Assembly: GCA_026647025.1 (NCBI GenBank)
Contig: JAPKHH010000004.1
Span: forward strand, 12,743-76,742
Origin: Giesbergeria sp.
GTDB lineage: Bacteria; Pseudomonadota; Gammaproteobacteria; Burkholderiales; Burkholderiaceae_C
Length of the DNA stretch: 64,000 bases
Direction of reading: 5' to 3'
The stretch's first letter is position 1; every line of letters starts with the position of its first letter. The notes beneath the pieces were generated by a model that was not told where the DNA came from, ran no database searches, and worked only from the letters and a program-made list of their open reading frames with translations. Positions 3,797-61,598 of this stretch are shown here, in pieces. The translations under genes and the position numbers were made by a program.

Positions 3797-6532
3797 ATGT
3801 CTGAAATCTCTCTTCCCCCCATGAGGCTGTCGGGCCTGGAGCCCGTCACCATCGGCAACGATGCGTTGTTCGTCAACGTCGGCGAGCGCACCAACGTCAC
3901 CGGCTCCAAGGCGTTTGCGCGCCTCATCCTGAACGGCCAGTTCGAGCAAGCCCTGGCCGTGGCGCGCCAGCAGGTGGAAAACGGCGCCCAGGTCATTGAC
4001 ATCAACATGGACGAGGCCATGCTCGACAGCAAGGCGGCCATGGTGCGTTTCCTGAACCTGATTGCCTCGGAGCCGGACATCGCGCGTCTGCCCATCATGG
4101 TGGACAGTTCCAAATGGGACGTCATCGAGGCCGGGCTGCGCTGCATCCAGGGCAAGCCCATCGTCAATTCGATTTCGATGAAAGAGGGTGTGCAAGCCTT
4201 CAAGCAACAGGCCAAACTGGTGCGCCGCTATGGCGCCGCCGCTGTGGTGATGGCCTTTGACGAGCAAGGCCAGGCCGACACCTACGAACGCAAGATCCAG
4301 ATTTGCGAACGCGCCTACCGCATCCTGGTCGACGAAGTGGGTTTCCCGCCCGAAGACATCATCTTTGACCCCAACATCTTTGCTGTGGCCACGGGCATCG
4401 AGGAGCACGCCAACTACGCGGTCGAGTTCATCGAGGCAACGCGCTGGATCAAGCAGAACCTGCCGGGCGCCAAGGTGTCGGGCGGCGTCTCCAACGTCTC
4501 CTTCAGCTTCCGTGGCAATGACCCGGTGCGCGAGGCCATCCACACGGTTTTCCTGTACCACGCCATCCAAGCCGGCATGGACATGGGCATCGTCAACGCC
4601 GGCATGGTGGGCGTGTACGACGACCTGGAGCCCGCGCTGCGCGAACGTGTGGAGGATGTCATCCTCAACCGCCGCCCCGACGCGGCCGAGCGCTTGCTCG
4701 AAGTGGCCGAGACTGCAAAAAGCGGTGCCAGGGACGAGAGCAAGAAACTCGAATGGCGCGGCACGCCCGAGGCCCCCAAGTCCGTGGGCGAGCGCCTGTC
4801 GCACGCGCTGGTGCATGGCATCACCGACTTCATTACCCAGGACACCGAGGAGGCCTACCGGGAGATTCTGGCCCGGGGCGGGCGCCCGCTGCACGTCATC
4901 GAAGGTCCGCTGATGGACGGCATGGGCATCGTCGGCGATCTGTTTGGCGCCGGCAAGATGTTCCTGCCCCAGGTGGTGAAGTCTGCGCGCGTGATGAAGC
5001 TGGCCGTGGCGCACCTGATCCCCTATATCGAGGAGGAAAAGCGCCAGGACGAGCTGGCCGGGCGCGACGTCGCTACCCGCGGAAAGATCGTCATTGCCAC
5101 CGTCAAGGGCGATGTGCACGACATTGGCAAGAACATCGTCACCGTGGTCCTGCAGTGCAATAACTTCGAGGTCATCAACATGGGGGTGATGGTGCCCTGC
5201 CACGAGATCCTGGCGCGCGCCAAGGCCGAAGGGGCGGACATCGTGGGCCTCTCGGGCCTGATCACGCCCAGCCTGGAGGAGATGCAGTACGTGGCGGCCG
5301 AGATGCACAAGGACGACCACTTCCGCATCAAGAAAATCCCGCTCTTGATCGGCGGCGCCACCTGCAGCCGCGTGCACACCGCCGTGAAGATTGCGCCGCA
5401 CTATGACGGCCCGGTGGTCTACGTGCCCGATGCGTCGCGCAGCGTGGGTGTGGCGCAAAGCCTGCTGGGCGAGGGCGCCGAGGCCTTCCTGGCGGAGGTC
5501 AGTGCCGACTACGACAAGGTGCGTACGCAGCACGCCAACAAAAAGCAGACGCCGATGTGGACGCTGGCGCAGGCGCGTGCCAACCGCACCGCCATCGATT
5601 GGATGGCCTTTCAGCCCACGCCACCGCGCGCGCTGGGCCGCCGCGTTTTCAGGAATTTTGATCTGAACGAGCTGGTGCCCTTCATGGATTGGGGTCCGTT
5701 TTTCCAGACCTGGGATCTGGCAGGCAGCTACCCCGCCATCCTGCAGGACGAGGTTGTGGGGGCCGAGGCAACGCGCGTGTTCGCCGACGGCCAGGCCATG
5801 CTGAAGAAAATCATCGAAGGCCGCTGGCTGCAGGCCAGTGGCGTGATGGCGCTGTACCCCGCCAACAGCGTGGGCGACGATATCGAGTTCTACACCGACG
5901 AGAGCCGCAGCGAAGTGCTCACCACCTGGTACGGCCTGCGCCAGCAGACCGAAAAGCATGCGGTCGATGGCGTCATGCGTCCCAGCCGCTGCCTGGCCGA
6001 TTTCGTCGCCCCCAAGGACAGCGGCATCGCCGACTACGCCGGTCTGTTTGCGGTGACGGCGGGTCTGGGTGTCGAGAAGAAGGAAAAAGCCTTTCTGGAA
6101 GACCTGGACGACTATTCCGCCATCCTGTTCAAAAGCCTGGCCGACCGCCTGGCCGAGGCCTTTGCCGAGTGCCTGCACCAGCGGGTGCGTACCGACCTCT
6201 GGGGTTACGCGAAGGACGAAGCCTTGTCCAATGAGGCGCTGATCGCCGAAAAGTACCAGGGCATCCGTCCCGCGCCTGGCTACCCGGCCTGCCCGGACCA
6301 CAGCGCCAAGCGCGAGCTGTTCCGTGTGCTGCAGTGTGGGGAGATCGGCATGGAACTGACCGACAGTCTGGCCATGGCACCGGCCGCCAGTGTCAGCGGG
6401 TTCTACCTGGGCCACCCGGACAGTACCTATTTCAGCGTCGGCAGGATCGGGGAAGACCAGCTCAAGGACATGGCGCAGCGCCGCGGCATGGACGAGGCCG
6501 CATTGCGCCGCCTGCTGGCCCCCTGCCTGTAG
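3797..6532 (+). CDS. metH: Cobalamin-dependent methionine synthase, pterin/cap/B12/activation part (no Hcy-binding domain)
   Basis: [23 protein letters not shown] (B12 His), [22 protein letters not shown]. Start placed at MSEISL behind the SD-like AGGTGAGG. Confidence 0.95.
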
Positions 6533-57512: not shown

Positions 57513-58499
57513 CTACTGGGCGACCTTCAGGTGAAAGTCGGCGGCCAGCTGGCGGTACGCCGCCATGCGCTCCTTGATGAACACGTCGAGCTCCTTGCCC
57601 GTCAGCGCAAACTTGAACAGGCCGCGCTCGGCCCGCAGCTTGTCGTACTGGGGGGTGGCCATCATCTTGGCAAAAGTGTCGCTCCACACCTTGAAATCGG
57701 CGTCGCTCACCTTGGGCCCCATGTAGAAGCCGCGGATGATGGGCCACTGCACATCGAAGCCCAGCTCCTTCATGGTGGGCACGCTGCCCATCGAACCTTC
57801 GAGGCGCTTGTCGGCCAGCACGGCCAGCACGCGGATCTTGGCGCCGGCCTTGATCTGCTCCTCGGCCTCGGAGGCGTCGCCCGAGTACACCTGCACATGG
57901 CCGCCCTGCAGCGCCGTAATGGCTTCGCCGCCGCCTTCAAACGCCACAAAGCGCATGCTCTTGGGGTCGAGGCCTGCGGCACGGGCTGTGAGTGCGGCCT
58001 TCATCCAGTCCTGGCTGCCGACGCTGCCACCGGCGCCAAACACCACCTTGCCGGGGTCGGCCTTGATGGCGGCGATCAGATCCTTGATGGATTTGAGGGG
58101 GGAGCTCTCGGCCACGATCACGGCACCGTAATCTGCGCCGATGGCAGCCAGCCAGCGCACATCGTTCTCGTTGTAGCGGCCGAATTTGCCCTGGGCCAGG
58201 TTCAGCAGGGAACCGCCGGAATAGGCCACGATGGTGTTGGCTTCGGCAGGGCGCTGGGCCACCACGGCGTTGTAGGCCACCGCACCAATGCCGCCGGGCA
58301 TGTAGCTGATGCGCATGGGGTCGCTGAGGAATTTGCCCTCCTGCAGCGCGCCCTGCGCCAGCTTGCAGGTCAGGTCAAAGCCGCCGCCGGGCTTGGCCGG
58401 GGCAATGCACTCGGTCTTGTCCAGCGGCCCGGCCTGGGCCATGGAAGCGAGCAAGGCTGCAGCAGCGCCGAGCGCAGCAAAGGAAGTACGCAGTGTCAT
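57513..58499 (-). CDS. tctC: Tripartite tricarboxylate transporter, periplasmic binding protein (Bug)
   Basis: CIAPAKPGGGFD, YMPGGIG, GSVGSQDW, FEGGGEA. Confidence 0.95.
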   Translation of the reverse strand: MTLRTSFAALGAAAALLASMAQAGPLDKTECIAPAKPGGGFDLTCKLAQGALQEGKFLSDPMRISYMPGGIGAVAYNAVVAQRPAEANTIVAYSGGSLLNLAQGKFGRYNENDVRWLAAIGADYGAVIVAESSPLKSIKDLIAAIKADPGKVVFGAGGSVGSQDWMKAALTARAAGLDPKSMRFVAFEGGGEAITALQGGHVQVYSGDASEAEEQIKAGAKIRVLAVLADKRLEGSMGSVPTMKELGFDVQWPIIRGFYMGPKVSDADFKVWSDTFAKMMATPQYDKLRAERGLFKFALTGKELDVFIKERMAAYRQLAADFHLKVAQ

Positions 58500-58761
58500 G
58501 GAGGTCTCCTGTCATTGAATGGGACGCCCCCACTGCGGCGGCAGCGCGCACTGGGGAGTGAGCGCACTGTAGAAAAAAGCGGCTTTCGGGCGGCTTTCAG
58601 AAATGGCAGGGAAATTTGGGGGTTTACCCTGGGTTTGAAGGGTGCCACAGGGCACGGTGGCACAGCTTGCGGGGGCGGAGGGCGAGTGGCCTTGGCGCGC
58701 GAATGGAGGGGCCAGTGGCAGGTGCCGACCCTGGCGTGGCGCAGGGGTTGCGCTAGCCCAT

Positions 58762-58785
58762 GGCGGGTGGGCAGCGGAAGCGGTC
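58762..58785 (+). repeat. Left imperfect inverted repeat bounding the IS91-relic/cassette insert
   Basis: GGCGGGTGGG...GAAGCGGTC mirrors the reverse complement of 60030-60056 (GGCCGGTGGG...GAAGCGGTC). Confidence 0.55.
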
Positions 58786-58842
58786 ATTCATTGCACCAAT
58801 CTACGGAGTGCATCCAACGGGCTGGTGCGAACGACAACGCCA

Positions 58843-59002
58843 GTCGGCCCAGGCGTTCATGGCGCGCGTGGCCAAGATGGATGTGGATGTGTGTCCGTGC
58901 TGTAAGGTGGGGCATTTGCCGGTGATGGCTGTGCTGCTGGGGCGGGTGCGTTTGCTATCCCCGGCGCACCCCAGCGCACCGCTCAATCGGGGGCCGCCAT
59001 GA
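58843..59002 (+). pseudogene. C-terminal relic of an IS91-family transposase
   Basis: SAQAFMARVAKMDVDVCPCCKVGHL...RGPP* resembles the C-terminal Zn-ribbon tail of IS91-like transposases; catalytic part absent. Confidence 0.65.
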
Positions 59003-59250
59003 AGGTGTGCGGATCTTGTCCGTACCGGTTTGCATTGCACAAGCAGCTTGTGGGGGTGTGGCTGTGCCACTTGCCCGCCAAGGAATGCACGGTGTGCAAG
59101 GCGTCACGCGGCAGCAACAGATTTGCGCCCCATTTACGAATCGGCGGCATTGATGCACGCCTGGCGCGGCGGTTCAGCCGTTCATAATTGCATTACACGG
59201 GGGTGCGAAGCTTTCAATCCCCTATTGCCACCGGCAGCGTCGGCGGTTCA

Positions 59251-59333
59251 GTCCAACAAGGTTTATCTGCCGCGGGAGGCGCCATGGATCGTTTCAGCAT
59301 CGCAGCGCGGCAGATAAACGCTATTCGTTAGTT
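59251..59333 (+). mobile_element. attC-like recombination site (atypical), left of the cassette
   Basis: R'' GTCCAAC; perfect 14-bp stem GTTTATCTGCCGCG/CGCGGCAGATAAAC; R' GTTAGTT. Confidence 0.6.
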
Positions 59334-59339
59334 GCACGC

Positions 59340-59945
59340 ATGTCGGCCGCACCGCACTTCTTGTCCGTCCTTGGGCCGATCATTGCCGCTTGCATCGCGG
59401 CAGTGGTTTCGTTTCTTGCCCTCGTCATCTCGAAAGAGAACAAGACGTCTGAATTCCGACAGGCATGGATTGACGGTCTCCGGCAAGACCTTTCGCAGTT
59501 TGCGGCGAACCTTCGGAGGCTAGAGGCACAGCCCACCTATGTGGATTGGAAGGCGCTGACCAGCAGCACTATGAAGGAGACTCTCGACGCTGCGAATGAG
59601 CGCGCGCTCAGGCCTGACTTCTTTGCCGAGAACCGCCTCAGGCTACTTCAGTCACGGTATGCGATCCGCCTTCGCCTGAACCCAGGTGAGGCCAACGGAA
59701 TGGCGCTGTTGGCCCAGGTTGATAAAGCCCTGGAGGCCTACTACTCTTCTGCGGATGTCGAAGCAGAGCTCGAAAGCCTCATGAACTTGGCGCAACCCTT
59801 CTTGAAGCAAGAGTGGGTACGAGTGAAAAAGGGAGAGCCAGTTTTTCGTGCGTCCGTCGTCGTAGCAAAGTGGCTGGCCGCAGTCCTTGCCGCGCTGGTG
59901 CTCGTTGGTGCCTATTTGGTATGGAAGGCCGCGAGCGCAACTTAA
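59340..59945 (+). CDS. Integron-type cassette ORF: 2-TM hypothetical protein
   Basis: Starts 12 bp after the GTT core and stops inside the next RYYYAAC; more A/T-rich than the flanks; N- and C-terminal TM segments. Confidence 0.8.
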   Translation: MSAAPHFLSVLGPIIAACIAAVVSFLALVISKENKTSEFRQAWIDGLRQDLSQFAANLRRLEAQPTYVDWKALTSSTMKETLDAANERALRPDFFAENRLRLLQSRYAIRLRLNPGEANGMALLAQVDKALEAYYSSADVEAELESLMNLAQPFLKQEWVRVKKGEPVFRASVVVAKWLAAVLAALVLVGAYLVWKAASAT

Positions 59946-60029
59946 CATGTCCGTCAACCCGGACGCCTTGCGGCGTCCCGGCGCTGCGCGCCTTCCTGCC
60001 GCAAGTCGCCGGTTACGTCTAAGTTAATC
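59940..60029 (+). mobile_element. attC site
   Basis: R'' ACTTAAC, 5 nt, L'' CGTCAACC (one extrahelical base versus L' GGTTACG), central stem CTTGCGGC/GCCGCAAG, R' GTTAATC. Confidence 0.78.
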
Positions 60030-60056
60030 GACCGCTTCTCCTCGCACCCACCGGCC
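60030..60056 (-). repeat. Right imperfect inverted repeat bounding the insert
   Basis: GACCGCTTC...CCCACCGGCC begins immediately after the attC R' box. Confidence 0.55.
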
Positions 60057-60179
60057 GCTCCCGGCCGAGTCCCGCCCCTAGCTTGCACCCGTGAACACCC
60101 CCCGTGCAGCCCAGGAACACGGACGTTCATGAGTGCCGCACAGCTTCCTGCACGAGCCCTCCCGCCCAGCCGCGCCTGA

Positions 60180-61598
60180 CTACACCGGCCACTGCACCCC
60201 CACCCGCAGGCCCGGCGCGGCCTGCCCCGGGCGGGCTTCTTCCAGCCGCAGGCGCCCGCCGTGGCGCTGGGCGATGGCGTGGGCAATGGCCAGGCCCAGG
60301 CCCAGGCCGCTGCCGCGCGCTTCCTGCGGCGCCGCCGGGTCCGCCACGCGCAGGAAGCGCTCGCCCACGCGGGCGCGGTCGGCGGCGGGCATGCCAGGGC
60401 CGTTATCGGCCACGCACAGCAGGGCCTGGCCGTCCTGCACGCCGGCCTGCACCGTCACCTGACCGCCGGGGGGCGTGTGGACGAGCGCGTTGTGCAGCAG
60501 GTTGGCCAGGGCTTCTTCGAGCAGTGCCCCATGGCCCCGGGCCTGCGTGGGCTCGGCGCCCAGTGGTTCCAGCCCCAGGTCGACGCCTTGCTGGCGCGCC
60601 AGCGGCCACAGGCGGCGGGTGACGCGCTCGGCCAGGGCGTGCAGGTCCAGGGGTTCGACCTGCATTTCCAGCGCATCGGCGCGGGCCAGGGCGAGCATCT
60701 GGTTGGTCTGGCGGATGGCGTCGTCCACCTGGGTCTTGATGGCCTGCAGGGCCAGTTCGCGGTGCGCCGGGTCGGTTTCGCGCAGCGCAAAGCTGATCTG
60801 CGTGGCCAGCGTGGTCAGCGGGGTGCGCAGCTGGTGCGAGGCGTCGTCGATGAACTGGCGCCGGTCGTGCAAGGCCTGCTGGTAGCGCTGGGTGTGCTGG
60901 TTGATGGCGTCCACCAGCGGCTGCACTTCCTGCGGCACCTGGTCCGCGCGGATGGGGGTGAGGTCGTCGCTGCGGCGCTGGGCCACGTCGGTGCGCAGGC
61001 GCTGCAAGGGGCGCAGGCCGGCATGCACGGCCAGCACCACCAGCGCCAGCGCGGCCGCCAGCAAGAGAAGATCACGGGCCACCGCTTCGAGTACCAGGCG
61101 GCGGGTGAAATCCTGGCGGCTTTCCAGCGTTTCGGCCACCTGGATGATGACGCGGCTGGAGTGCGATCCTTGCGACAGCGGGCGGTCCAGCTGGCGCGCG
61201 TAGGTGCCCACGCGCACGGGGATGCCGAAGTAGTCGGCGTCGTGGAACTGGGGCGCGGCGTCTTCCAGGGGCCGGGGGGGCGCGGGCAGCAGGGCGTCGC
61301 CGATTTCCACCAGGCCGTCGCCGCTGGCCACGCGGTAGAACACCTGGCCGCTGGCGGTGAGTTCAAAGAACTCCAGCATGCGGTAGGGCAGCTCTACCGA
61401 CAGGCCGCCGCTGGCGGTGGAAATGTTGGCGTCCATGGCCTTGATGGCGCCCAGCAGCGAGCGATCGAACGCCGCGTTGGCGGCGGCCAGCGCATTGCGC
61501 CAGCTCACCACGATCTCCAGCCCCATGACCGCCAGCAGGCCCGGCAGCAGCACCACCAGCAGGGTGCGGCGCAGGCTCCAGTGGGCCCAGCGCGTCAT
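60180..61598 (-). CDS. tctE: Sensor histidine kinase (TctE/QseC family)
   Basis: FIDDASHQLRTPL, NLLHNAL, ADNGPG, GLGLAI; 2CSK_N-like periplasmic domain; near tctCBA. Confidence 0.85.
   Translation of the reverse strand: MTRWAHWSLRRTLLVVLLPGLLAVMGLEIVVSWRNALAAANAAFDRSLLGAIKAMDANISTASGGLSVELPYRMLEFFELTASGQVFYRVASGDGLVEIGDALLPAPPRPLEDAAPQFHDADYFGIPVRVGTYARQLDRPLSQGSHSSRVIIQVAETLESRQDFTRRLVLEAVARDLLLLAAALALVVLAVHAGLRPLQRLRTDVAQRRSDDLTPIRADQVPQEVQPLVDAINQHTQRYQQALHDRRQFIDDASHQLRTPLTTLATQISFALRETDPAHRELALQAIKTQVDDAIRQTNQMLALARADALEMQVEPLDLHALAERVTRRLWPLARQQGVDLGLEPLGAEPTQARGHGALLEEALANLLHNALVHTPPGGQVTVQAGVQDGQALLCVADNGPGMPAADRARVGERFLRVADPAAPQEARGSGLGLGLAIAHAIAQRHGGRLRLEEARPGQAAPGLRVGVQWPV

Follow-up and report, generated by a model that had tools for sequence, protein, structure and literature searches.

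A single gene cassette behind an IS91-type relic, very probably the last survivor of a decayed chromosomal integron

The window, by which we mean the whole stretch of 64,000 nucleotides analyzed, is part of a 3.7-Mb draft genome of 221 contigs, in which integron-related loci were found on contigs C180, C13 and C141 as well as in the window. Between tctC and a tctE-like sensor kinase gene, whose stop borders the interval, lies a 1.7-kb stretch of non-coding appearance that holds a cassette and several relics. The remains of the integron span 58760-60067, between the tctC promoter region and the 3′ end of the tctE-like gene, and the cassette has a GC content of ~57% compared with 65-80% in the flanks. 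The features are, in order of position:

57513-58499, minus strand: tctC, first gene of the tctCBA tricarboxylate transporter operon
58560-58600: motif upstream of tctC (1150-1195 in locus L035 and 3840-3880 in locus L037)
58760-58787: platform end 'X', 28 nt downstream of the intI stop, common to the integron platform
58788-58825, minus strand: intI relic, stop codon (58788-58790) and last 11 codons, encoding SPLDALRRLVQ
58822-58843, plus strand: IS91-type tnpA fragment A, 22 nt, 96% identical to the L143 tnpA at -792 to -768 from the hairpin
58844-59002, plus strand: IS91-type tnpA fragment B, last 52 codons and stop
59003-59327, plus strand: 3′ untranslated end of the IS91-type element, with box, terminal hairpin, spacer and final G
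59251-59257, inside the IS 3′ end: subterminal box GTCCAAC
59261-59274 and 59306-59319, inside the IS 3′ end: perfect 14-bp stem of the terminal hairpin
59320-59326, inside the IS 3′ end: spacer GCTATTC, followed by the final G at 59327
59328-60023, plus strand: integron gene cassette, 696 bp, from the TT of the left GTT to the G of the right GTT
59340-59945, plus strand: cassette ORF, 201 aa, from ATG at 59340 to the stop TAA at 59943-59945
59940-60029, plus strand: attC, with R″ ACTTAAC, L″ CGT[C]AAC, L′ GTTACG and R′ GTTAATC
60024-60067, plus strand: platform end 'Y', ~40 nt, after the last attC (TTAATCGACCGCTTCTCC..GGCCGCTCC)
60180-61598, minus strand: tctE-like sensor kinase gene

The cassette opens at the GTT at 59327-59329, leaving 12 nt (59328-59339) ahead of the ATG, and its TAA stop lies inside ACTTAAC (59940-59946). 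Both ends had been read in this way in the original prediction, which also called the ORF promoterless; in agreement, promoter prediction over 58500-60200 found no sigma-70-like promoter. At its right end, the cassette forms a 90-nt imperfect palindrome that finishes in GTTAATC (60023-60029), with the crossover G|TT at 60023|60024. Here, ACTTAAC matches RYYYAAC, and GTTAATC matches GTTRRRY save for position 6, which is T. The CGT[C]AAC segment pairs with GTTACG and two more bulges are located on the same arm; with every bulge on the ″ arm, the extrahelical bases of the bottom strand are G, G and T. This strand folds at -27.0 kcal/mol versus -22.5 kcal/mol for the top strand, with a z-score of -2.96 and one of 200 shuffles folding as well.

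We scored attC sites with covariance models built from attCs beside intI genes and in cassette arrays, which replaced a finder based on regular expressions and pairing that gave too much noise at the high GC content of this genome and was overly strict in arrays. These models are home-made from 17-20 hand-picked seeds and are not the IntegronFinder model, and their E-values are rough. Using the leave-out model R2, comprising 17 other attCs and omitting the window site together with its two orthologues, an unfiltered search of the whole 64-kb window put the right site at 53.1 bits (E 1e-10) and the runner-up at 10 bits; with model R1 the site scored 72.4 bits. In the 3.7-Mb genome, R1 yielded five attC matches at E<=1, all beside intI or integron relics: the window attC, two by the intact intI on C180, one by a truncated intI on C13 and one on C141, which scored 45 bits without being an R1 seed. 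Even with the filters off, no second attC appeared in the window at E<=10, which makes the locus a single-attC orphan, one site below the CALIN minimum of two. Score, boxes and fold together indicate that 59940-60029 is a true attC, and the near-canonical site with an extrahelical base in L″ that had been predicted was thus recovered.

The 201-aa product has 836 homologues at E<=1e-3, among which no Pfam domain is on record, and it yielded no NCBIfam match, the best Pfam (E 0.033) and PADLOC (E 0.021) matches both being sub-threshold. Its all-helical AlphaFold2 model (pLDDT 89.5) comprises an amino-terminal transmembrane helix, a helical bundle of ~130 aa and a carboxy-terminal transmembrane helix. 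A Foldseek comparison of this model with the PDB gave nothing at E<=1e-3, only generic helical bundles with a best E of 6e-3 and TM<0.5.

Orthologues of the cassette ORF at 74-89% amino acid identity were identified in loci L175 (74%), L172 (75%) and L169 (89%), all of which exhibit the same 5′ boundary and an attC downstream amid different neighbours. DNA homology to the window begins at 59330-59332 for both L169 and L175, and for L172 it begins with the ORF, at 59340; for L169 the start at 59330 lies within 2 nt of the cassette 5′ boundary at 59328, and the homology extends to 60067. The orthologous attCs score 62.4, 31.9 and 28.3 bits. In the L175 array, which has 16 attC matches with model R2, a canonical attC lies directly upstream of the cassette, whose start reads G|TTAAATTGCACCGATG there and G|TTAGTTGCACGCATG in the window. 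Because the orthologues share the 5′ boundary and the attC across different arrays, the segment 59328-60023 is, by this comparison, a genuine integron gene cassette, mobile as a unit.

The left side of the cassette is bordered by a hairpin with the geometry originally described, a perfect 14-bp stem with GTCCAAC and 3 nt on its left and 7 nt and GTT on its right. Its fold is more stable than random expectation (z -3.3; none of 200 shuffles as good). Tested as an attC, however, the hairpin (59251-59333) scored 2.3 bits, with an E of 1.2 in a 161-nt search, versus 53-72 bits for the right site; the stem is devoid of bulges, and its spacers of 3 and 7 nt compare with ~5 and 5-6 nt in attCs. We therefore rejected an assignment as attC on score, missing extrahelical bases and spacer lengths.

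Upstream of the hairpin, the segment 58841-58999, which translates to 53 aa, aligned by tblastn with the carboxy-terminal tail (residues 353-404) of the IS91-family transposase of plasmid pM216_AC2 (41.5% identity, E 5e-8). At the DNA level, 58842-59331 and the 3′ end of an intact int- and tnpA-bearing element in L143, a Burkholderiales MAG from groundwater, share 95.9% identity over 491 nt, and the terminal ~130 nt exhibit 77-79% identity to the copies on Polaromonas plasmids and on the E. coli plasmid pM216_AC2. Homology to the E. coli, Polaromonas and L143 copies ends at CGTTA|G, which places the cassette directly behind an IS91 relic, as first proposed. The relic retains only ~60 carboxy-terminal and internal codons, too few for the NF033538 and PF04986 models, and the genome has no other copy of this transposase and no intact copy of the IS. 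On these data, the left hairpin is best described as the conserved 3′ terminus of an IS91-family element and not a cassette site. The suggestion that the IS terminus had itself provided an attC-like target was hence right about the terminus, but its attC-like role is not supported. Two other readings of the hairpin were tried and rejected: a terminator or random palindrome, on account of its conservation in at least 123 loci with covarying stem positions, and a gene in the overlapping ORF at 59188-59331 (47 aa), the loop sequence of which is not conserved among copies.

A pattern scan for the IS terminus returned at least 120 contigs, nearly all from Betaproteobacteria, with at least 123 copies; one copy lies in a clinical E. 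coli class 1 integron. In this latter case, the IncC plasmid pM216_AC2, a pair annotated as site-specific integrase and IS91 family transposase is flanked by the aac(6′)-IIa attC on one side and the aadA4 cassette on the other; the transposase passes NF033538 with 389.5 bits as well as Pfam Y2_Tnp and Zn_Tnp_IS91. The best NCBIfam match of the IS recombinase is the integron integrase model, at 168 bits and below the cut-off. The hairpin does occur downstream of intact IS91-like elements, where the original prediction had proposed to look for it: 22 of the 61 copies with enough upstream sequence have both int and tnpA, nine are partial like the one in the window and 30 consist of a solo end. 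The distance separating int and tnpA from the hairpin is constant among copies with upstream sequence, and in intact copies the terminus is located 255-290 nt past the tnpA stop. A variable stem position is occupied by C-G in 44 copies, T-A in 41 and A-T in four.

The flanks of this family, here termed IS91-Int, define where it inserts. Intact copies begin with (G)TTGAACTAAACCGC and are preceded either by a complete attC (L064, L080 and E. coli) or by an attI beside a divergent intI (L105, L143 and L090), the left flanks ending at G|TTGAAC. The right end reads ...GATAAACGCTATTCG and is followed by TTRRRY; of 119 copies, 107 have GTT as their right flank and 61 match GTTRRRY exactly. Intact copies thereby fill the exact cassette slot at attI or attC, G|TTGAAC...GCTATTCG|TTRRRY. 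Across 36 IS-bearing loci, all 40 attC matches were co-oriented with the IS and none overlapped the hairpin, which itself was never scored as attC at E<=1e-3 in these loci. Taken together, the family appears to occupy specifically one cassette slot at the integron crossover point. The adjacency of hairpin and cassette in the window follows from this habit, as the IS family inserts at the G|TT of attI and attC sites. The G|TT junction may be made by a Y2 transposase with a GTT target, by the element's own recombinase or by IntI. IS91-family insertion normally takes place beside a GTTC/CTTG-like tetranucleotide at the oriIS end. We found no description of an IS91 element targeting integron att sites in the literature searched.

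One subfamily of the IS carries a near-consensus outward promoter motif, TTGACN-N16-TACAAT, pointing into the downstream cassette. It was detected in 34 of 101 copies (L050, L055, L057, L058, L063 and others) at a constant position 65-68 nt upstream of the hairpin, with no match in either of two control regions. The window counterpart (~59188-59222) exhibits only a weak TTGCAT-N19-TTCAAT. Solo right ends lacking int and tnpA are common (L050, L129, L156, L093 and others, together the 30 of 61 copies given above), and their homology often sets in at the -35 box, ~80 nt ahead of the hairpin. Some of them lie directly after core genes (nuoM-like, pepA) and before cassette-like sequence, as if heading integrase-less arrays. 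An interpretation of the solo ends as MITEs with both ends was rejected, the left-end motif being present within 400 nt in only one of 123. A fourth integron-type fragment of the genome, C141:16159-16314 (minus strand), is located beside an IS1595-like transposase and folK/pcnB, and the 33 nt ahead of its attC are the same as in the loop and right arm of the window IS hairpin.

The window segment 58300-58825 is 93.2% identical to positions 892-1412 of L035 in the congener G004, where X, an intI pseudogene on the minus strand, and then attI and cassettes are located proximal to tctC. Beyond the shared stretch, the G004 frame encodes IntI residues 291-349, 96.6% identical to the IntI encoded on C180, and residues 7-122 at 56% identity with a stop inside. 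Furthermore, window positions 58760-58842 are ~80-86% identical to C13:46871-46954, which lies beside a truncated intI. With 11 codons the intI relic is not significant alone, and its assignment draws on the G004 synteny and the C13 similarity. The TIGR02249 profile had no match on the window's contig, whereas it recognized a full-length intI on C180 at 445.7 bits versus a cut-off of 265 bits, together with an attI and two cassettes. The earlier statement that no intI is present accordingly needs refinement: no intact copy exists in the window, but its last 11 codons and stop persist at 58788-58825 and a full-length gene is found on C180. An attI as in G004 and C13 is absent from the window.

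The opposite end of the platform, Y, is 95% identical to C13:47865-47903 and 71% identical to C180:7877-7968, and has a copy at 4685-4722 in L169. It follows the last attC in four arrays with different last cassettes, and probably represents the distal end of the ancestral integron platform. As a mark of the array end at this very site in G004, Y was rejected, being absent beside tctE there. The differently located C13 relic comprises a truncated intI, an attI, one cassette and Y, with the intI 3′ end and ~28 nt (X) as in the window. As X is common to the window locus and C13, the platform resided at at least two chromosomal sites in one genome.

In a further congener, G018, the tctC/tctE site is empty, with an intergenic region of ~160 nt. 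Congener G015 has another small insert at the same site (L036, G015:C346, 2800-3560, minus strand) comprising a ribbon-helix-helix antitoxin-like ORF and a RelE/ParE-like ORF, apparently frame-shifted, in which no attC was detectable with the model. The intergenic site appears to be an insertion hotspot. All relatives retain the motif TGTAGAAAAAAGCGGCTTTCGGGCGGCTTTCAGAAAT upstream of tctC, regardless of insert; it probably marks the TctD operator/promoter region, with the integron placed distal to it.

With an intI relic 500 bp upstream of the cassette and an integron at the same site in G004, the locus is, on comparative grounds, a decayed integron and not a non-integron site. The single cassette is very probably the last survivor of a chromosomal integron whose intI was deleted, in a course of ordinary integron decay. 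The decay left two junctions, both of which could be mapped to the base. By comparison with L143 and G004, the first joins the intI tail to tnpA position -790 with a 4-nt microhomology, CTGG (58822-58825), and the second joins tnpA positions -768 and -418 with the microhomology AG (58842-58843).

We propose the following course. In the ancestral sedentary integron, a minus-strand intI would have been succeeded by attI and then by plus-strand cassettes. The G|TT crossover immediately upstream of the 201-aa cassette would have been occupied by an element of the IS91 family that codes for a Y2 HUH transposase as well as an IntI-like tyrosine recombinase and terminates in the conserved hairpin. 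A first deletion, at CTGG, would then have fused the last 11 intI codons to the middle of tnpA, with the loss of intI, attI, the IS recombinase gene and most of tnpA, and a second, at AG, would have removed ~350 nt more of tnpA. What remains is the 3′ terminus of the IS including the hairpin, a single intact cassette together with its canonical attC, and the ~40 nt of the distal platform. Anatomy, homologies, attC scores, the synteny with the integron of a relative and the deletion junctions were observed directly, whereas we infer the order of events, an IS insertion at attI and not at an attC, and how mobile and how expressed the cassette is today; with attI gone, the element may originally have sat at attI or at an attC.

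The original prediction had envisaged capture at a non-integron site. Put concretely, an IntI acting in trans, for instance that of C180, would have placed a free circular cassette, by attC x GTT recombination, into the terminal GTT of an IS91 relic. Such an event would have had the means: an intact IntI is encoded in the genome, a GTT beside a hairpin forms the left junction, insertion of cassettes by IntI at genomic GTT sites outside att sites has been reported (bioRxiv 10.1101/2022.09.11.507474), and single attC sites without integrase are recognized (Cury et al. 2016, PMC4889954). Against it stand the intI carboxy-terminal relic 500 bp upstream and the G004 integron at the very same tctC-proximal site, by which this proposal is already largely refuted. 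Moreover, two other integron loci of the genome also have Y behind their last attC, which points to an inherited array end rather than a recent insertion, and all informative intact copies place the IS within an integron att site. We consider such a capture extremely improbable.

A different view takes the locus as an array of two cassettes, in which the IS91-Int element is itself a cassette, the hairpin its functional, atypical attC, and the 201-aa cassette still cleanly excisable by IntI with the hairpin GTT as left partner. The exact slot on both sides, G|TTGAAC ... GCTATTCG|TTRRRY in attC as well as attI, the co-orientation of the IS with the arrays at all 40 attC matches, and the recombinase's affinity to the integron integrase model (best NCBIfam match, 168 bits, below cut-off) would fit it, as would the box GTCCAAC, which would pair at six of seven positions with the GTTGAAC formed on circularization. 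The hairpin does not behave accordingly, with its 2.3 bits, the lack of any match at E<=1e-3 in 36 loci, and a perfect stem with 3/7-nt spacers and without extrahelical bases. The GTT junction could moreover reflect the transposase's own target choice, in line with the tetranucleotide habit of IS91. An array of two cassettes is thus quite unlikely, and we retain integron decay as the preferred reading.

For the present state of the cassette, the loss of Pc/attI together with the lack of a consensus promoter implies that it is probably silent or weakly read through. Its right attC could be usable in trans by the intact IntI of C180; clean excision would further require a partner on the left, a role that the IS hairpin probably does not fill. 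The L169 cassette copy is probably also immobile, its attC (4660-4690) lacking the 3′ spacer and the G of R′ through a deletion of ~7 nt. It is doubtful, though conceivable, that the IS hairpin acts as a working attC analogue (GTCCAAC...GTT, without extrahelical bases and with reversed spacer asymmetry) that IntI or the IntI-like recombinase of the element would read. In that case, the IS would be a self-mobilizing 'cassette' colonizing attI and attC sites, its dead end would still be the left partner here and perhaps a source of read-through transcription, and the orphan 201-aa cassette would stay excisable by the C180 IntI.

A single-attC orphan produced by integron decay is a known kind of locus. 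Orphan cassettes and attC clusters without integrase (CALIN, and single-attC 'SALIN') arise by decay of complete integrons (PMC4889954; PMC9024848), and Cury et al. 2016 (PMC4889954) discuss loss of intI and IS-mediated rearrangement as routes. The window locus resembles these in its canonical attC and promoterless ORF with no functional intI nearby, its intI pseudogene remnant, the neighbouring IS and the intact IntI elsewhere in the genome. In contrast to the CALIN and SALIN reports, the decay path is legible base by base, through two microhomology deletions. The locus thus offers a clean, base-resolved case in which an IS would have entered an att site and microhomology deletions stripped intI, attI and most of the IS, and it cautions that integrase-less cassettes should not be read as captured at non-integron sites before their relatives are checked. 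With the sedentary integrons of Betaproteobacteria it shares a fixed chromosomal location that recurs in a congener, cassettes of unknown function, and 60-115-nt attCs with common L-box motifs (..CCGGTTACG..); it differs from them in the deletion of its integrase, of which the congener retains a pseudogene, and in the presence of X and Y at no fewer than two loci of a single genome.

Of wider interest is the integron-docking IS91 element, which is widespread in Betaproteobacteria and reaches a clinical class 1 integron; the window holds only a dead 3′ fragment of it. Likeness to the IS91 family (IS91, IS801, IS1294 and ISCR relatives) is closest for two-ORF members with an upstream gene of phage-integrase type: the intact relatives of the relic tail match NF033538, Y2_Tnp and Zn_Tnp_IS91, and the hairpin end downstream of tnpA abuts a GTT-containing target with no duplication beyond GTT. 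Unlike other IS91 members, this subgroup is found specifically at attI and attC crossover points, in cassette orientation. If confirmed experimentally, IS91-Int would add a third type to the att-site-specific parasites of integrons and connect two mobility systems, each of which acts on single-stranded DNA. Parasites of integrons that home to attC are represented by the IS1111-attC group and the group IIC-attC introns (see PMC3001079). IS91-Int is likewise a mobile element homing to attC, and, as in group IIC-attC introns, one of its subfamilies carries an outward promoter-like motif; it is set apart from both by its enzymes, an HUH Y2 transposase and a tyrosine recombinase, and by entering at the G|TT crossover itself, with attI used too.
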